From IMG/VR virus record IMGVR_UViG_2703719354_000025: a stretch of 38,744 nt of DNA; one strand, given 5' to 3'. This DNA is from a virus (Duplodnaviria; Heunggongvirae; Uroviricota; Caudoviricetes). Made by a program: the position numbers and the translations under genes. Below, piece after piece: positions 1 through 37,277 of the stretch (its first letter is position 1; each line of letters opens with the position of its first letter). Under the pieces are notes generated by a model that worked only from the letters and a program-made list of their open reading frames with translations, was not told where the DNA came from and searched no databases.

Positions 1-1254
1 ATGCTGGAACAAATGGGCATTGCCGCGAAGCAAGCCTCGTATAAATTAGCGCAACTCTCCAGCCGCGAAAAAAATCGCGTGCTGGAAAAAATCGCCGATG
101 AACTGGAAGCACAAAGCGAAATCATCCTCAACGCTAACGCCCAGGATGTTGCTGACGCGCGTGCCAATGGCCTTGGCGAAGCGATGCTTGACCGTCTGGC
201 ACTGACGCCCGCACGGCTGAAAGGCATTGCCGATGATGTGCGCCAGGTGTGTAACCTCGCCGATCCGGTGGGGCAGGTAATCGATGGCAGCGTACTGGAC
301 AGCGGCCTGCGTCTTGAGCGTCGTCGCGTACCGCTGGGGGTTATTGGCGTGATTTATGAAGCGCGCCCGAACGTGACGGTTGATGTCGCTTCGCTGTGCC
401 TGAAAACCGGTAATGCGGTGATCCTGCGCGGTGGCAAAGAAACGTGTCGCACTAACGCTGCAACGGTGGCGGTGATTCAGGACGCCCTGAAATCCTGCGG
501 CTTACCGGCGGGTGCCGTGCAGGCGATTGATAATCCTGACCGTGCGCTGGTCAGTGAAATGCTGCGTATGGATAAATACATCGACATGCTGATCCCGCGT
601 GGTGGCGCTGGTTTGCATAAACTGTGCCGTGAACAGTCGACAATCCCGGTGATCACAGGTGGTATAGGCGTATGCCATATTTACGTTGATGAAAGTGTAG
701 AGATCGCTGAAGCATTAAAAGTGATCGTCAACGCGAAAACTCAGCGTCCGAGCACATGTAATACGGTTGAAACGTTGCTGGTGAATAAAAACATCGCCGA
801 TAGCTTCCTGCCCGCATTAAGCAAACAAATGGCGGAAAGCGGCGTGACATTACACGCAGATGCAGCTGCACTGGCGCAGTTGCAGGCAGGCCCTGCGAAG
901 GTGGTTGCTGTTAAAGCCGAAGAGTATGACGATGAGTTTCTGTCATTAGATTTGAACGTCAAAATCGTCAGCGATCTTGACGATGCCATCGCCCATATTC
1001 GTGAACACGGCACACAACACTCCGATGCGATCCTGACCCGCGATATGCGCAACGCCCAGCGTTTTGTTAACGAAGTGGATTCGTCCGCTGTTTACGTTAA
1101 CGCCTCTACGCGTTTTACCGACGGCGGCCAGTTTGGTCTGGGTGCGGAAGTGGCGGTAAGCACACAAAAACTCCACGCGCGTGGCCCAATGGGGCTGGAA
1201 GCACTGACCACTTACAAGTGGATCGGCATTGGTGATTACACCATTCGTGCGTAA
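1..1254 (+). CDS. proA: gamma-glutamyl phosphate reductase (complete, 417 aa)
   Basis: Full-length ORF from ATG at 1 to TAA at 1252-1254; translation recognised from memory as E. coli ProA (aldehyde dehydrogenase fold). Sits immediately upstream of thrW as in the E. coli chromosome. Confidence 0.96.
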
Positions 1255-1368: not shown

Positions 1369-1444
1369 GCCGATATAGCTCAGTTGGTAGAGCAGCGCAT
1401 TCGTAATGCGAAGGTCGTAGGTTCGACTCCTATTATCGGCACCA
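1369..1444 (+). tRNA. thrW: tRNA-Thr (anticodon CGT)
   Basis: 76-nt sequence GCCGATATAGCTCAGTTGGTAGAGCAGCGCATTCGTAATGCGAAGGTCGTAGGTTCGACTCCTATTATCGGCACCA with acceptor stem, D-loop, anticodon loop CATTCGTAATG (anticodon CGU), T-arm GGTTCGACTCC and 3' ACCA. Confidence 0.95.
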
Positions 1445-1446
1445 TT
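1399..1446. repeat. attL core: 48-bp direct repeat covering the 3' part of thrW
   Basis: ATTCGTAATGCGAAGGTCGTAGGTTCGACTCCTATTATCGGCACCATT is identical at 1399-1446 and 38466-38513; flanking bases differ (c/a before, t/a after). Confidence 0.9.
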
Positions 1447-1458
1447 TAAATCAATAAG

Positions 1459-2622
1459 TTACACATCATTAGTACCTTCCTTATTTTTTGACTGGGACAA
1501 ATTTGGGACCGATGGGTTCAGGATCGAGTCTATTTGCCGTGCGTGTTCGGTAAGGTGATTAGGTGCAAGGTGAGCATATCGACGAACCATTTCGATAGAC
1601 TCCCAGCCTCCCATTTCCTGTAACACTGACAACGGGACTCCGGCTTGAACCAGCCAACTTGCCCAGGTGTGTCTCAAGTCGTGAAATCTGAAATCATCAA
1701 TATCAGCCCGTCTCAGCGCCGCTTTCCAGGCTGTGTTTGCGTCATACCGCATCTTCCTTACTGTTGGCGCTTTCGTTCCGTCTGGTTTGGTACAGCTTTC
1801 CTTGTACACAAATACCCAACGGTGATGATTCCCGATTTGTTTTTTCAATACGCGACATGCAGTATCATTCAGCGCAACGCCAATTGCGCGGTTTGATTTA
1901 CTCTCTTCCGGGTTTATCCATGCCACCCGGCGCTGCATATCTATTTGTTGCCATTCAAGGTTGATGATGTTCGAGCGCCTTAAACCTGTTGCCAGTGCAA
2001 ATTCAACAACAGACTTTAATGGCTCCGGACATTCATCAATCAGCCTTTGTGCTTCATGGGGCTCCAGCCAGCGGATCCGTTTATTCTTTGGTTGAGGCAC
2101 TTTAATAATTGGTGCCTTATCCAGCATTTTCCATTCACGCTCTGCGGCTCTTAGTAGGGCCTTTATAAATGAAAGATGCGTAGCCTTCGTTGCAACGGAC
2201 GCTGGTTTTGGCGTGTATTCTGGAACAGGTTTCCCTTTTTTTCTGCATGCTTCTGCCCTGAGTCTCCAGTTTTCCTCATGACGCCGGTTCGTCATTTTCT
2301 GCATTGCTGAATAAATTTTTGATTCAGTAATGTCTCTTAGTTGCATTCCTGCGAAATGTTGAAGCCAGAATCCGATCCGGCTTTTGTCATCGTCCAGTGA
2401 TTTTTTATGTGCTTTCTCTTCAAGCCACCTGACACACGCTTCCTCGAACGTTATATCAGGTATTTCACCAAGTTTGCTGACCCGCCATGCTTCAGCCTTT
2501 AGCTTGTCATGGAGTTCTGTCGCCTGCCTTTTGTCCTTTGTTCCAAGAGACTGTTTAAATCTTTTACCGTTCGGCAATGTGAAACTGGCGTACCATATTT
2601 CACCTCTGCGGAAGAGTGACAT
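1459..2622 (-). CDS. int: tyrosine recombinase / phage integrase (387 aa)
   Basis: Translation recognised from memory as very close to the DLP12-type integrase IntD ([52 protein letters not shown]... C-terminal [17 protein letters not shown]...RRYAHLAP catalytic region). 3' end lies 13 bp from the attL core. Confidence 0.95.
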
Positions 2623-3516: not shown

Positions 3517-4043
3517 TTGCGTAACTCCGATAACTCGTTAAAGCGTTCCATAAACATCCCGTAGGCATGGCCCGGTGCCAGTGGAATCACGTTGAACATC
3601 TCTGTTGCCGGGATACCTTCCAGTACAGGCCAGAAAGAGCCATCATCAAGCCCGAGATCGCGGCGTTCGGTTGCCAGCATGATGAGATCGGCATATTTCA
3701 CGGGCGTACTCATAACTGGGGGTAACCCGTATTTCTCACGGATTACGGCGTCTATTTTTTCTTCCATTTGTTTATAGTCAGGAAGAAGGCGTTTCAGTGG
3801 TGCGGGAATGTCCTGGCAATACGCTTCTGTTGCATCATGCATTAACGCTTCAAAAGCAAATTCCTGCGGCACCAGCTGGCTGCAAAGAACCGCATGTTGG
3901 GCGACGCTGTAGAAGTGCGAAAGATGACCGGCAAAGCGACAGATATTTGAAAGGGAAACCGCGATATCGTTAATATCGATGTCGTCTTTATTTATCCTGT
4001 CATAATAAAAATGCTTCCCGGAAAAAGTTTTAATAAATGACAT
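3507..4043 (-). CDS. HD-domain phosphohydrolase (YfbR-like 5'-deoxynucleotidase family)
   Basis: Translation contains an H...HD metal-binding pattern (FAGHLSH, MHDATEAYCQDIPAPLK). Start set at the ATG at 4043 (MSFIKTF...), which has a GGAG 8 nt upstream; the ORF-track start at 4070 is GTG. Confidence 0.7.
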   Translation of the reverse strand: MSFIKTFSGKHFYYDRINKDDIDINDIAVSLSNICRFAGHLSHFYSVAQHAVLCSQLVPQEFAFEALMHDATEAYCQDIPAPLKRLLPDYKQMEEKIDAVIREKYGLPPVMSTPVKYADLIMLATERRDLGLDDGSFWPVLEGIPATEMFNVIPLAPGHAYGMFMERFNELSELRKCA

Positions 4044-6053: not shown

Positions 6054-6221
6054 TTGTTGAATAATCGACAAAACCCAACTTAAATTTTCGTCAGTGGGCT
6101 CGATGCCATGTGCGGTGAGCTCACTTTTCAAAACTCCAAGCAATTCAGAGCTGATTTTCAATATATCTGCTTGATTTCTAACTATTCCCACTTTTTCCTC
6201 CCTTGGTCTACGCGCGGTCAT
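6015..6221 (-). CDS. hypothetical protein (68 aa), first ORF downstream of the PL-like promoter
   Basis: ORF about 170 nt downstream of the leftward promoter; weak RBS; overlaps the 3' end of the convergent 5862-6053 ORF by 39 nt. Confidence 0.35.
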   Translation of the reverse strand: MTARRPREEKVGIVRNQADILKISSELLGVLKSELTAHGIEPTDENLSWVLSIIQQSLKPSLSKLFIE

Positions 6222-6396
6222 GTTTTACGCCCAAACGACTTCACAGTTATTGTTTAAAATCTGGACTTTCATTTCATACACCTGCTTTAACATGAGTGCC
6301 TAGTGGCACAACATGACTCAACGAATCATCCTGGACTTCATATGCCCCAGGCGGCTACTTCGTGGGCGTCCTGCCTGTTCGTTGTTTCGCTTGGGT

Positions 6397-23727: not shown

Positions 23728-24208
23728 TGTTCAGCAGCCCACGGAGATGCGCTTTAACCGCGCCCGTGTCCGGCGGGCGTTTGTCACGATTGGGCAGCGT
23801 CATATGCGTGATGCCCGTCGGCTGGTGATGCGCCGTGCGCGGTCGGCACCGGGTGAAAACCCCGGTTATCAGACCGGACGCCTGGCTCGTTCGATTGGTT
23901 ATATGGTGCCGAGAGCCAGTAAAAAGCGAGCCGGTTTTATGACACGCATTGCCCCTAACCAGCGCAACGGGAGGGGGAACCGGATGATCTCTGGTGACTT
24001 CTATCCGGCGTTTCTGTTTTTTGGTGTCCGGGGAGGAGCAAAACGTCGTCGTAGTCATCATCGTGGTGCATCCGGTGGCAGCGGCTGGCGACTGGCTCCA
24101 CGTAATAACTTCATGGTGGAAACTCTTGAAAAGAACCGCAGCTGGACACGCTATTTTCTGGCGCGGGAATTGCGTAAATCACTGAAGCCGGAGCGACGAC
24201 ACAGATGA
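23702..24208 (+). CDS. HK97 gp10-like tail component
   Basis: 168 aa basic protein in the head-tail joining gene block. Confidence 0.65.
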   Translation: MATPFLHVDVQQPTEMRFNRARVRRAFVTIGQRHMRDARRLVMRRARSAPGENPGYQTGRLARSIGYMVPRASKKRAGFMTRIAPNQRNGRGNRMISGDFYPAFLFFGVRGGAKRRRSHHRGASGGSGWRLAPRNNFMVETLEKNRSWTRYFLARELRKSLKPERRHR

Positions 24209-24765
24209 AACTGACGCCTGTTATTGCTGCACTGCGTGCCCGCTGTCCGTATTTTGAAAACCGGGTTGCAGGCGCGGCCCAGTTCAAAAATCTGCCGGAG
24301 GTCGGAAAGCTGAAACTCCCGGCGGCATATGTTGTACCGGGTGATGATTCTCCGGGAGAAAACAAAAGCCAGACCGACTACTGGCAGGAGCTGAAAGAGG
24401 GTTTCTCCGTGGTTGTCATACTGAGTAACGGGCGTGATGAGCGCGGTCAGTTTGCCTCGTATGATGTGGTGGACGATGTCCGGCAGATGCTCTTTAAGGC
24501 TCTGCTGGGCTGGAACCCGGAGGCGTGCGGTAACCCGATTACCTATGACGGCGGCACGCTGCTGGATCTGAATCGTCATGAGCTGATTTATCAGTTCGAT
24601 TTTTCGGTCATCAGCGAGCTGACTGAAGACGATACCCGCCAGCAGGATGATCTGAACAGTCTGGATGAACTGCAAACGCTGGCGATTGATGTTGATTATC
24701 TCGAGCCCGGTAACGGGCCTGACGGCGATATCGAACATCACACCGAAATAACCCTTCCTTCCTGA
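24205..24765 (+). CDS. tail completion / tail terminator-like protein
   Basis: 186 aa, last gene before the sheath; ATGA overlap with the upstream gene. Confidence 0.6.
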   Translation: MKLTPVIAALRARCPYFENRVAGAAQFKNLPEVGKLKLPAAYVVPGDDSPGENKSQTDYWQELKEGFSVVVILSNGRDERGQFASYDVVDDVRQMLFKALLGWNPEACGNPITYDGGTLLDLNRHELIYQFDFSVISELTEDDTRQQDDLNSLDELQTLAIDVDYLEPGNGPDGDIEHHTEITLPS

Positions 24766-27189: not shown

Positions 27190-29092
27190 TGATAATTTTC
27201 AGCTGAAAGCCATCATCACCGCTGTTGACAGGCTGTCCGGCCCGCTTAAAGGTATGCAGCGTCAGCTTAAGGGATTTCAGAAAGAAGTCTCCAGCCTTGC
27301 TCTGGGCGCTGCCGGGGCGGGTACTGCAATAATGGGGGCACTGGCACTCCCTGTAAAATCAGCCATCACCCTTGAATCGAAGATGGCTGATGTCCGCAAA
27401 GTGGTGGACGGTCTGGATACGCCGGATGCGTTTAAGGCCATGACGGAGCAGGTACGCGCTTTGTCTACTGAGCTTCCCATGTCTGCAGACGGGATCGCGG
27501 AAATTGTGGCGGCTGGCGGTCAGGCCGGGATTGCACGTGATGAACTGATGCAGTTTGCCACTGATGCGGTGAAGATGGGCGTGGCCTTTGATACCACGGC
27601 TGAAGAGTCCGGGCAGATGATGGCCCAGTGGCGTACTGCGTTTAATATGACGCAGGATGAAGTGGCCGGGCTGGCTGACAAAATCAACTACCTTGGTAAT
27701 ACCGGCCCGGCGAACGCGAAGAAAATCTCCGATATTGTTACGCGTATTGGTCCTTTAGGTGGTGTTGCAGGTGTGGCTTCCGGCGAAATCGCGGCAATGG
27801 GGGCAACCATTGCCGGGATGGGCGTGGAGTCAGAAATTGCCGCCACAGGGATCAAGAACTTCATGATTTCCCTGACCGCGGGAAATTCTGCGACAAAATC
27901 GCAGAAACAGGCATTGCGTTTTCTGCGGATCAATCCGAAGAAATTAGCTGCTGATATGCAGAAAGATGCCCGGGGCACCATGCTGTCTGTACTGGATGCG
28001 ATGGCTAAAGTGCCTAAAGAAAAACAGGCAGCTGTGCTGAATGCCCTGTTCGGGAAAGAGTCTCTGGGCGCGATAGCACCTCTGCTGACTAACCTTGATT
28101 TGTTGCGTACCAACTTCAGGCGGGTTGCGGATTCCCAGCAGTATGGCAGTTCGATGCAGAAGGAATATGCTTCGAGGGCAGCGACGACGGAAAACCAGCT
28201 TTTACTTCTGCAAAATCAACTTGATGCCATTTCTTCCACGCTGGGGGAAACGTTTCTTCCTGAGGTTAATGATGGTCTTGAAGCGGTAAAACCGCTCCTT
28301 GAGGAAGTGAGAACGTTTGTCCGTGAAAACCCGGAGCTCGTTAAGACCATTGCTAAAATCGGTCTGGCTTTACTGACAGTGGGGGCCGCTGCAGGCTCTT
28401 TGTCCAGAATCATGAAAATTCTCGGCGGTGTGATGAATATGACGCCTGCTAAGGGGCTGATTGCTCTTCTGGTTGGTGGCGCTTACCTCATTATTGATAA
28501 TTGGGAAACCGTAGGCCCTGTCATAAAAAAAGTCTGGCACGTGGTGGATGAAACGGCGCAGGTGATGGGGGGATGGGAAACTGTTCTGAAAGCGATTGCC
28601 CTGTTTATGGCAACCAAATGGGTTGCTGACGTTACCAAATCCATTACCGCAGTGACCAGAGAGATGCGTACGCTGGGGAAGGTATCGGCAGAAACGGGAT
28701 TGATGGGGAAAGGCCGCGGCTTTATCGGGAAGGCCGGGGTATATGGTTTTTTGGGAACCCTGATGTATGAGCCGGTTAAAGATACTCTGGAAAGTGTTGT
28801 TCCTGAAGATACGGTTAACTGGCTGGATAATAAAGGGCTGTTTCTGGCTTCAGACTGGACGCCTTTTTTTGATCGTAAAGAGTACGAGCAGTATCAGGCC
28901 AGCCTGAGCCAGTACAAACCCAATGTTCCGCTGTTGAATCCATCTTCTTCCATGACACAGCACAGCGAGCTGAAAGTCACGTTCGAGAATGCTCCGCCAG
29001 GTATGAAGATAATTGATGTACCGGGCAAAGCCGATCCCCTGATGAAAATCACGCACGATGTGGGGTATTCCCCTTTTCGTTTTCCACGATAA
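27185..29092 (+). CDS. tail tape measure protein
   Basis: 635 aa, Ala/Gly-rich helical protein with hydrophobic central segments, after the chaperone. Confidence 0.9.
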   Translation: MADNFQLKAIITAVDRLSGPLKGMQRQLKGFQKEVSSLALGAAGAGTAIMGALALPVKSAITLESKMADVRKVVDGLDTPDAFKAMTEQVRALSTELPMSADGIAEIVAAGGQAGIARDELMQFATDAVKMGVAFDTTAEESGQMMAQWRTAFNMTQDEVAGLADKINYLGNTGPANAKKISDIVTRIGPLGGVAGVASGEIAAMGATIAGMGVESEIAATGIKNFMISLTAGNSATKSQKQALRFLRINPKKLAADMQKDARGTMLSVLDAMAKVPKEKQAAVLNALFGKESLGAIAPLLTNLDLLRTNFRRVADSQQYGSSMQKEYASRAATTENQLLLLQNQLDAISSTLGETFLPEVNDGLEAVKPLLEEVRTFVRENPELVKTIAKIGLALLTVGAAAGSLSRIMKILGGVMNMTPAKGLIALLVGGAYLIIDNWETVGPVIKKVWHVVDETAQVMGGWETVLKAIALFMATKWVADVTKSITAVTREMRTLGKVSAETGLMGKGRGFIGKAGVYGFLGTLMYEPVKDTLESVVPEDTVNWLDNKGLFLASDWTPFFDRKEYEQYQASLSQYKPNVPLLNPSSSMTQHSELKVTFENAPPGMKIIDVPGKADPLMKITHDVGYSPFRFPR

Positions 29093-35266: not shown

Positions 35267-35445
35267 TGAGCGATATTTATGCAGTCGTACAAAATGGTGT
35301 CGTTACAAATCTTGTTGTATGGGATGGTAAGTCAGAGTTTAAGCCAGAAAAAGCGGATATAGTTAAATGTGTTGGAGATGTTGGTATTGGCTGGTCATAT
35401 GACGGTAAAAAATTCATCAAGCCTGAAGATAAAACCGCGCAATAG
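35266..35445 (+). CDS. small protein downstream of the tail fiber (59 aa)
   Basis: ATG at 35266 overlaps the fiber stop (TAATG); too short for a typical tail fiber assembly protein. Confidence 0.4.
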   Translation: MSDIYAVVQNGVVTNLVVWDGKSEFKPEKADIVKCVGDVGIGWSYDGKKFIKPEDKTAQ

Positions 35446-35456
35446 CGCGGTTTTAT

Positions 35457-36476
35457 TTATTTTACTGCTAAAATTCGTTTTCTTAGCATCAGCTCTAAAG
35501 GCTCCTCAACTAATTTATAAAGTATGATTGAGACTATGGTTATTATAACAAGGAGCGCTATTAAATAGAGTGGTCCGGGGTTATGTCCAAAGATTTTAAA
35601 GCAAAATAATATAATGGGTTGATGAATTAAATAAAAAATAAATGATGATTTCCCTAATAGCTCTAGGGTTTTTGAACTGAGGATAGTATGAATGACTCCA
35701 TTTCTTAGATAGATGCATGAAGTAAAGAATATTACCATGGGGAGTAAATAATATAACGAATAACGTAGACTATTATTTATGTTGTTGCTATAATATATAG
35801 CTATTAGCAGAGGTAATAGTGAAATTAAAAACAAAAGGCTGTCGACTGTCTGCTGTCGGCTGTTTTTCCAGCAAGCGTAAATAATCATGCCGCAAATAAA
35901 TTCTACCAAGCGGCTTACTGGGAATATATAATATAACCAGTGATTAAGTTCTTCTGTTTGTATAATTTTTAAAAAATATATAGTTAATAGTAGAGTTATA
36001 ATTGATATTGCAGTGATTACTTTCTTTGTAATTGATGTATAAATCAACGGAATAAACATTAAATAAAAAAACAGCTCATCAGACAAAGACCATGATACAC
36101 CATTTAATGAGAAGTAGTAATCCTCCTTTGGTATCCAACTTTGCATTAATAAAATATTTGTTAAGGTTTTTGAAAAATCAAAGTTCTTTAAGTGAATGGT
36201 TAGTAAAATAAATGGCATGGCTAATAATAGATGCATTGGAACAATTCTTGCCAATCTTAAAAGAATAAACTGTCTTTTACTTGTTACTTCATTTTTTAGC
36301 TTGTCTTCATATGAATATGAAAGAATGAAGCCAGATAAAATAAAGAAAAAGGAAACGCCAATAAATCCCTGGGAAAACATTTCTTTTACAAAAACACCAA
36401 AATAGTCTGTATTTAAATGGCATAAATAAACCATTAATGCAGCTATAAATCTGAGTCCTGTTAAGTGGCGAAGCAT
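35457..36476 (-). CDS. acyltransferase family 3 membrane protein (O-antigen/LPS acetyltransferase-like)
   Basis: Polytopic membrane protein with the acyltransferase-3 N-terminal pattern (RHLTGLRFIAALMVYLCHL...); start set at the ATG at 36476 with GAGG RBS (the ORF-track start at 36506 is TTG). Very AT-rich. Confidence 0.8.
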   Translation of the reverse strand: MLRHLTGLRFIAALMVYLCHLNTDYFGVFVKEMFSQGFIGVSFFFILSGFILSYSYEDKLKNEVTSKRQFILLRLARIVPMHLLLAMPFILLTIHLKNFDFSKTLTNILLMQSWIPKEDYYFSLNGVSWSLSDELFFYLMFIPLIYTSITKKVITAISIITLLLTIYFLKIIQTEELNHWLYYIFPVSRLVEFICGMIIYACWKNSRQQTVDSLLFLISLLPLLIAIYYSNNINNSLRYSLYYLLPMVIFFTSCIYLRNGVIHTILSSKTLELLGKSSFIFYLIHQPIILFCFKIFGHNPGPLYLIALLVIITIVSIILYKLVEEPLELMLRKRILAVK

Positions 36477-37212
36477 CAATAACCTCTTGTTATGAAGATA
36501 AAGCAATTCAAAAGAGGCATTTTATGACTGTAGGGGATTGGTGTCTATATGAATGAGTAATCTGGTTTTTAAAATCTTCTTTAATTACAAAATAAACCTT
36601 TCTTAGGCTATAGATTTGTGGCTGTAACACTGTGTGTCCACGACATTGAGACATCCTTCCGCTTTGCTATAGATGTGGAATTCAGGATCAAGCGATATCG
36701 GACTCATCCTCAGCACCACCCGGTTAATCTGGATAACGGGAGAAGGGAAGCGCTGCCAGAAGATGATGATGGTTACAGTTCTGCACTGGCTATTCTGCAC
36801 TGGCTATATTCGTGGTGATCACTTACATAATTAATGACGCCAGGAATACGGAGTTTGATGATTGCCTGGTGATGTGAGAAAAAACTCATACACACAAAGC
36901 TTTGAACTGGATTGCAAGGCTTTGTGCTATTCGATAGCACGAGTTTGAATGAAAATCAGCCGTTATCGATTTTACGTATTTTTGTATGAGAGGATTTTTA
37001 CCTCCTCCCACCGATCCTCCATAACTTTACGACACTGTCTCTAGGACTGCTATGTGCCAAGAGCGGAATTTTCTAATATTATGCTGCATTCGTTTAAGGG
37101 GAGCAGATCAGCTAACGACTCCTACGTCCTGGGGAAAGGTCACATATGCTAAACAGCAGCTCAGCAAAGAGAAGAGCGAATTTGGTAACGGGAAACCGTT
37201 ATGATATGAATA

Positions 37213-37240
37213 AGGCTCCCAATGGGAGCCTTATTTTTTG
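37213..37240 (+). terminator. rho-independent terminator hairpin
   Basis: AAGGCTCCC-AATG-GGAGCCTT followed by ATTTTTTGA on the plus strand; lies about 40 bp beyond the stop of the minus-strand small gene but has no T-tract in that orientation. Confidence 0.6.
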
Positions 37241-37277
37241 ATAGGGATGATGAATATTATCCGAGGCTTACTGGCTT

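Follow-up and report, generated by a model that had tools for sequence, protein, structure and literature searches.

A gene-poor prophage end as a mosaic of relics and the probable terminator of an imported gene cassette

Close to the right end of the stretch of DNA analysed here (the window: 38,744 nucleotides, IMG/VR virus record IMGVR_UViG_2703719354_000025), an acyltransferase gene and a small minus-strand gene are separated by about 800 bp in which no intact protein gene can be recognized, and which nevertheless contain a textbook terminator for plus-strand transcripts. What would such a terminator end? The initial annotation had proposed a small RNA or a micro-protein gene and, as a further option, a bidirectional terminator serving the minus-strand gene pair. 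We traced the origin of each segment of this gap and compared the hairpin with its counterparts in related loci.

Setting and composition of the gap

A 64-bp direct repeat marks both ends of the thrW prophage in the window (1399-1462 and 38466-38529; 95% identity by blastn of the left against the right end). The left copy corresponds to the 3′ part of a tRNA-Thr(CGU) gene, located at 1369-1444, plus a few bases, and the right copy (38466-38529) represents attR. Large open reading frames between about 7.4 and 35.3 kb lie mostly on the plus strand, with the tail genes last; in the near-identical prophage of KSC1031, the final ones carry the RefSeq names baseplate J/gp47, YmfQ, and StfP. The gap falls in the final 2 kb of the prophage, before attR—a position that, judged by the established organisation of the lambda genome, is the equivalent of the lambda prophage b region. 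Megablast against phage records gave no match to the gap, and homology to lambda surfaced in distant mode only.

Both the right border and the coding content of the gap had to be revised. The neighbouring gene, previously given as 50 aa long, encodes 57 aa—the same length as in most of 13 homologous loci, two of which encode 58 aa—and since its stop codon sits at 37257-37259, the true gap spans 36477-37256. Nor is the gap devoid of open reading frames of 60 aa or more, as had been stated: with bacterial start codons, two GTG-initiated frames exist, one of 66 aa on the plus strand (36618-36818) and one of 65 aa on the minus strand (36603-36800), the former of which carries the UmuD-like remnant described below.

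The leftmost segment (36477-36665, minus strand) is the region upstream of the acyltransferase gene, which starts at the ATG at 36476 in RefSeq. The acyltransferase has a Pfam match to Acyl_transf_3 (2e-30), and an identical locus is annotated by RefSeq in KSC1031. This upstream region accompanies the acyltransferase in seven E. coli genomes and includes the best promoter-like site of the region (36547..36519, minus strand, TAGACA-17-TAAAAT), which scored 10/12 in the promoter scan.

Adjoining it on the plus strand is a HumD/UmuD′-like (S24 peptidase) pseudogene (36666-36877), of which residues 65-129 of 129 are left in two frames. When HumD of a Nissle prophage (129 aa) was used in tblastn, residues 65-108 aligned at 36666-36797 (86% identity) and residues 100-129 at 36788-36874 in the other frame (83%), followed by a TGA stop at 36875-36877. 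The remnant matched a UmuD-like PHROG (2e-11), and RefSeq labels it as an S24 family peptidase that is frameshifted and missing its N-terminus, with a pseudogene flag in three genomes. A direct-repeat search revealed a perfect 14-bp tandem duplication (TTCTGCACTGGCTA twice; 36779-36806), to which we attribute the frameshift because it coincides with the change of frame. Compared with phage P1 HumD and UmuD′, the window remnant is thus alike in its 83-86% amino-acid identity to Nissle HumD over residues 65-129, but lacks the first 64 codons and is frameshifted in the remainder; the counterpart of the UmuD Ser60 motif presumably belonged to the missing portion. With its N-terminal half absent it does not form a complete open reading frame, and it has neither a dinI partner nor a promoter. 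The earlier statement that the gap holds no convincing protein gene is therefore correct insofar as none is intact, but it overlooked the pseudogene that occupies part of the gap. An imperfect hairpin that had been pointed out at 36851-36873 lies inside the reading frame of this pseudogene and is no better than shuffled sequences (z +0.6, 147/200).

To the right of the pseudogene, positions 36891-36928 are a relic of the distal P arm of a lambda-type attP: they match lambda 27473-27510 at 95% over 38 nt and contain a conserved inverted repeat (36893-36904/36915-36926). The lambda counterpart is located directly left of the sib/tI hairpin. Unlike lambda attP, the window keeps the distal ~40 nt alone, with no tI hairpin, Int arm sites, or core, and the functional att site of its prophage is the thrW repeat, 1.5 kb beyond the relic. 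Two other genomes place this segment in context. In LHM10-1, whose prophage occupies the lambda attachment site, the acyltransferase-HumD′ module is colinear with lambda 27473-27742 through tI to the att core, followed by ybhB/bioA; in TW10590, the module adjoins intS and tRNA-Arg (argW). The acyltransferase-HumD′ module has therefore been part of prophages that integrate at three different sites.

Similarity of the window to LHM10-1 ends at 36928 and to TW10590 at 36937, and homology to sequences found downstream of pin genes begins at 36932. Across this boundary lies the palindrome GTGCTAT-TCG-ATAGCAC, one of the features that had suggested an RNA locus. It is indeed present, one base away from its earlier placement (36924-36940), and exceeds chance marginally for 800 bp (z -3.1, 2/200 shuffles). 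We consider it a product of the junction rather than a conserved feature, because it spans the recombination joint (36928/36929) and because other copies of the adjoining element have ATAGTGC or ATAGGGC in place of its right arm, ATAGCAC.

That element accounts for positions 36932-37106 (plus strand), which constitute the right three-quarters of a ~195-bp non-coding unit from lambdoid b regions (lambda ~24171-24360). The window segment matches lambda 24212-24348, between ea47 and ea31, and aligns at 80-85% with the lambda and E. coli prophage copies. Matches to the element occurred in 2513/5426 complete E. coli genomes (46%), and we recovered 31 distinct sequences with the element core, 27 of them full-length. 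On the left, full copies begin where the preceding gene ends, at its stop codon; for no fewer than five loci, this gene encodes a serine invertase of the Pin/Gin type (Resolvase, 1e-50, plus HTH_7). On the right, they stop abruptly (…CTATGTGCCAGNAGCGGA) and give way to unrelated cargo. Immediately past the stop codon on the left lies a hairpin in which several lineages carry U:A in place of C:G, and wobble pairs. The window copy resembles these lambda b-region segments in sequence but has no pin gene beside it, and both the leftmost ~50 nt and the hairpin within them are missing.

Neither a structured RNA nor a protein could be assigned to the element. RNAalifold on nine full copies found no overall RNA structure (covariation term +0.76, with compensated pairs in the first hairpin only), and an Rfam search of full copies returned no family. 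Coding potential was rejected: the upstream frames are short and vary from copy to copy, and the central part of the element contains a T5/T6 indel. A 12-codon open reading frame (MRGFLPPPTDPP) was likewise dismissed, being present in some copies, without its stop in others, and devoid of a Shine-Dalgarno sequence. A second copy of the right end flanking the cargo, as for a recombination site, was seen in none of the loci examined. K-12 offered no annotation for the element; in e14 it is missing downstream of pinE, and Rac retains 41 nt only. Searches of the literature on ea47/ea31, the element sequence, and lambda b-region transcription yielded nothing relevant, and we found no published function for the element. 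As an observation in its own right, a ~195-bp element that follows pin invertases and occurs in nearly half of all complete E. coli genomes may merit separate study.

The minus-strand gene cassette

The right part of the gap belongs to DNA of different descent. Positions 37049-38299 form a shared block—a two-gene cassette on the minus strand with its flanks—that is 96.9% identical to a locus of the Klebsiella-labelled protein cluster P0001 (blastn against L067/L070); this comparison locus is chromosomal in the genomes carrying P0001. The cassette-specific part begins at ~37107/37111 and runs to about 38292. Identity to Buttiauxella ferragutiae is 93.5% over 37111-38292; that to Proteus is 90% over 37241-38284, with homology ending exactly at the edge of the terminator hairpin. 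Within E. coli, just two other genomes contain cassette DNA.

The larger gene (37521-38093, minus strand) encodes a protein of 190 aa with a predicted GNAT fold. Its 68 homologues are all unnamed and free of Pfam domains, and their named sources are Enterobacterales. An AF2 model of the protein (pLDDT 88.9) had AtaT/TacT/KacT/GmvT as its top Foldseek matches, followed by RimI and SpeG (E 3e-6 to 1e-4, TM 0.5-0.56), with a Foldseek probability of 1.00 against AtaT, TacT, and KacT. Searches of the cassette proteins against Pfam (GNAT toxin and antitoxin families included), NCBIfam, and PADLOC returned nothing, and PHROGs offered an unnamed family for the 190-aa protein, no more.

The 57-aa gene (37257-37430, minus strand) is its conserved partner. 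It was found downstream of the 190-aa homologue in 13/13 genome loci (tblastn, 49-96% identity), is also called in P0001 (Klebsiella-labelled), Enterobacter, Serratia, and Cronobacter loci, and across our comparison set of 17 other cassette loci—from at least a dozen genera—the small gene is always 3′ of the large one. A promoter-like site precedes it on the minus strand (37464-37492; -35 TTGTTT at 37492..37487, a 17-nt spacer, and -10 TAAAAT at 37469..37464). With 3/6 matches in the -35 box, this site falls below the threshold of the scanner; a TTGTTA/TTGTAA/TTGATA-17-TAnAAT-like arrangement can be read between both genes in the intergenic sequences of loci L007-L019.

The predicted GNAT fold, the best structural matches, and the presence of a small partner gene recall the toxin-antitoxin pairs AtaRT, TacAT, KacAT, and GmvAT. 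However, the 190-aa protein shares 8-14% sequence identity with these toxins (at TM 0.5-0.56), there is no upstream DUF1778/RHH-type antitoxin, and the partner—57 aa, with no Pfam family—lies downstream rather than upstream and has a putative promoter of its own. Because gene order and partner protein differ, we did not file the cassette as a member of the GNAT toxin-antitoxin systems. An uncharacterised pair of a GNAT-fold gene and a 57-aa gene that recurs across Enterobacterales may itself merit separate study.

The terminator hairpin and its direction

The hairpin on which the question turns is located at 37209-37239. Its two 13-nt arms (37209-37221/37223-37235) are 100% complementary, with a GC core of GGCTCCC/GGGAGCC, and a T6 run occupies 37234-37239. 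That this is a strong rho-independent terminator of the plus strand was borne out: in this sense it folds with -23.2 kcal/mol (z -5.7, 0/200 shuffles), and its tail UUAUUUUUU has seven U among the first 8 nt past the GC core. The minus-strand hairpin reaches -18.9 kcal/mol (z -5.1, 0/200 shuffles), and its tail UUAUUCAUAU has 5/8 U in an interrupted, partial U tract; in this sense, the hairpin sits 21 nt past the stop of the 57-aa gene. A consensus terminator scanner did not list 37209-37239, probably because part of the T run is taken up by the stem, which makes the tail rule fail. The tail of the cassette also folds into a small second hairpin (TAACGG-GAAA-CCGTTA; 37186-37201), which has no T run on either side.

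Comparison with other cassettes was informative about the direction of the terminator. A related GC hairpin lies within ~30 nt of the small-gene stop in 12/17 other cassette loci, two of them with an internal mismatch, the distance in other genera being 14-29 nt. Its stem varies by compensated changes (GGCTCCC/GGGAGCC, GCTCTCC/GGAGAGC, GACTTCC/GGGAGTC, and GCTCCTG/CGGGAGC). On the gene-sense side, a tract of at least 6/8 U is present in Pseudescherichia, Kosakonia, two Pantoea-type, and Cronobacter loci (L012, L014, L016, L017, and L078); on the antisense side, it occurs only in the window, a Klebsiella-labelled locus (L067), and Buttiauxella (L007), which represent one close lineage. Since 5/17 other loci, Proteus among them, have no related hairpin, it is not indispensable to the cassette. 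The blocks shared with Buttiauxella (37111-38292) and with the Klebsiella-labelled loci (37049-38299) both take in the hairpin, and the position between convergent genes—the usual setting of a bidirectional terminator—is found in the Klebsiella-labelled loci, where a 74-aa gene on the far side of the hairpin is read towards it. In the window, no plus-strand gene ends there. The tail at 37111-37207 was considered as the 3′ end of a lost convergent gene; Buttiauxella offers no supporting open reading frame for this beyond an unconvincing 54-aa frame.

The hairpin thus shares with enterobacterial bidirectional intrinsic terminators a GC-rich stem of 12-13 bp, a loop of 1-3 nt flanked by an A run and a T run, and a position shortly past a stop codon, between convergent genes in the Klebsiella-labelled loci. 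It differs from them in that the window has no convergent partner and the sense-side U tract, UUAUUCAUAU, is interrupted. Because the hairpin is kept with the cassette and has its T run on the gene-sense side in distant loci, its ancestral role appears to be that of ending the cassette's own transcript. We consider it likely that the strong hairpin in this prophage-end mosaic is the intrinsic terminator of the minus-strand cassette and is bidirectional in this lineage. Of the options first raised, it is accordingly the bidirectional terminator for the minus-strand pair that gains support, from the joint travel of hairpin and cassette and from the gene-sense T runs in five distant loci.

In the window, the Klebsiella-labelled loci, and Buttiauxella, the plus strand has the better U tract, and the tail genes lie upstream on this strand; both observations would also suit a hairpin that serves the plus strand alone, insulating the cassette against antisense read-through from the prophage late/tail genes or the HumD remnant, with cassette transcripts ending elsewhere. 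We regard such an arrangement as improbable. The tail genes are already separated from the acyltransferase by a strong, bidirectional-looking terminator (35427-35458), and the acyltransferase gene, which is read in the opposite direction, also intervenes. Furthermore, distant cassettes have the U run on the gene-sense side, and neither the folds nor the comparative loci showed another hairpin with a T run downstream of the 57-aa gene where cassette transcripts might end instead.

As for a small RNA, it would be a plus-strand transcript of ~150 nt (~37090-37239), started by a weak promoter from the right end of the non-coding element and closed by the canonical plus-strand terminator, which would provide an Hfq-type 3′ end. 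On the plus strand, the scan gave a single promoter-like site (37054-37082, GTGCCA-17-TATTAT, 9/12), which is suitably placed; other long-form copies and the Klebsiella-labelled loci have weak -10-like hexamers (CATCAT, CATTAT, CATCGT, and CATTGT) in the corresponding position, although the -35 box is poor and promoter-like sites in the region are rarer than in shuffles (5 vs 11.0 +/- 3.2). Segment 37095-37243 folds well (z -3.9), but a search of Rfam with E values up to 1 retrieved the bare hairpin only, against RmaA (E 0.49, 24 bits vs a gathering score of 57). The entire unit (37049-37240) is 90-100% identical in the Klebsiella-labelled loci; however, it extends across the border of the conserved element into cassette-specific DNA, Buttiauxella has other DNA in place of the promoter part, and more distant cassettes share the hairpin alone. 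Its body (37111-37207) is 91.5% identical to Buttiauxella with three gapped positions, as compared with 90-96% for other non-coding DNA and 94.4-98.9% for the genes. With no Rfam family and a body that is absent beyond the closest relatives and not additionally conserved, the proposed small-RNA locus found no support, and we judge it unlikely. If it were real, such an RNA might have the adjacent GNAT-fold cassette as its target, or might work in trans.

A translated micro-protein fares worse still. Two 31-aa frames had been put forward, and both exist: one from the ATG at 37146 as quoted, the other from 36949 instead of 36951. The former is preceded by a purine-rich GAAAGG 6-11 nt before its ATG, has its stop within the T run of the terminator, and is intact in a 99%-identical Klebsiella-labelled copy. 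In Buttiauxella, however, ACG stands in place of this ATG, and an indel of 2 nt changes the reading frame ahead of the hairpin. The frame from 36949 crosses the T5/T6 length polymorphism among the element copies, and a 50-aa frame (37052-37204) spans the joint from the conserved element into cassette DNA. The scanned micro-ORFs had no Pfam or PHROG match, and none had an NCBIfam match. Given that the frames are not conserved and match no protein family, the idea of a micro-protein gene was not upheld, whether for the frame at 37146 or for another short one, and we view it as highly improbable.

Proposed history and function

We read the gap as an ordinary mosaic of dead prophage fragments rather than a new small-RNA locus. 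We envisage that it was assembled by successive recombination between prophages, which would have brought together, from left to right, the acyltransferase upstream region, the HumD remnant, the P-arm stump, the right part of the element, and the 3′ flank of the cassette; most of this would be dead DNA. The HumD/UmuD′-like gene would have lost its first 64 codons and then acquired the 14-bp tandem duplication.

For the cassette itself, we infer termination at the hairpin on either strand. Transcripts of the 57-aa gene would start at the conserved promoter between both genes, perhaps supplemented by transcription continuing from the 190-aa gene, and these minus-strand transcripts would end at the hairpin, 21 nt past the 57-aa stop. 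In this lineage, the A run upstream of the hairpin would turn it into a plus-strand terminator as well, blocking antisense read-through into the cassette; the convergent 74-aa gene of the Klebsiella-labelled chromosomal copy could be the reason for this two-way design. The plus-strand half in the window seems to end nothing because the convergent partner has been replaced by relics. Judging from the poorer U tract on the minus strand, termination in the sense direction at the window hairpin may be inefficient.

The locus also documents the mobility of prophage cargo, in that one module—the acyltransferase with the HumD remnant—has moved between prophages with three integration sites. More generally, it calls for caution when gene-free stretches at prophage ends are screened for regulatory RNAs: even one that carries a perfect terminator can be explained by relics and by the terminator of a convergent cassette, without a new RNA gene.

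A non-coding element downstream of invertase genes

At 36932-37106, the window carries a partial copy of a non-coding unit of ~195 bp, the pin-downstream element, which begins where Pin/Gin-type invertase genes end, at their stop codon, and has a sharp right edge, with variable cargo beyond it that includes SMODS+SLATT and restriction-modification genes. Of the 5426 complete E. coli genomes, 2513 carry the element, as does the b region of lambda; full copies lie, for example, at lambda 24171-24360 (about 6172-6361 in our comparison locus L006) and in loci L024, L029, and L047. Compensatory changes were seen in its first hairpin. It has no Rfam family, and the literature searched contained no function for it.

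Positions 36934-36940 of the window read ATAGCAC where other copies have ATAGTGC or ATAGGGC, and the perfect 7-bp palindrome in the window arises exactly from this TG-to-CA difference to the commonest form of the element. The difference fits the pattern expected of template-switch 'quasipalindrome correction'.

In locus L063 (about 705-722, minus strand), the element is apparently interrupted immediately ahead of the conserved CTAGGACTGCTATGTGCC block by DNA resembling one end of an IS3-family element. In L004, a sub-threshold Rfam IS009 match (3694-3894; 81.5 bits vs a gathering score of 117) covers a tail-fibre-assembly pseudogene together with the end of a tail-fibre gene; a full copy of the element follows ~100 nt downstream of the match.

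A gene pair with a predicted GNAT fold and the right end of the prophage

On the minus strand, 37257-38093 holds a conserved pair of genes for proteins of 190 and 57 aa, which recurs in L007-L019 and L067-L079 and, across Enterobacterales, occupies both prophage cargo regions and chromosomal sites. The 190-aa protein is predicted to adopt a GNAT fold, its nearest structures being the TA toxins AtaT/TacT/KacT, and a promoter-like site between the two genes is conserved; the pair matched no Pfam, NCBIfam, or PADLOC family. The chromosomal copy of the pair in loci bearing the Klebsiella-labelled protein cluster P0001 (L067-L072, 3482-3545) keeps only ~60 nt of the right end of the pin-downstream element, the rest being absent, which suggests that this chromosomal locus descends from prophage cargo.

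About 135 nt past attR, an ORF begins (MTKNTRFSPEVRQRAVRMVLESQGEYD…; 38665-38744) that we take to be IS3-family transposase orfA-like; at the corresponding position, E. coli KSC1031 has a LysR-type pseudogene and paoD/paoC instead.

The acyltransferase module and its flanking hairpin

The acyltransferase gene converges on the last ORF of the plus-strand tail region, and the hairpin AAAACCGCGC-AATA-GCGCGGTTTT (35427-35458) lies between the two, with a 14-bp stem and T runs flanking both sides; it is a second bidirectional-looking terminator. The Rfam Leu_leader model matches it below threshold on both strands, in the terminator part only.

The acyltransferase gene (GC about 27-32%) forms a module with a truncated HumD pseudogene (35457-36928), also present in L042 (TW10590), L043 (LHM10-1), and L002 (300709). 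Its 96-99% identity between prophages at thrW, argW (IntS), and the lambda site beside ybhB/bioA shows it to be a single cargo module that has been transferred between integration specificities.
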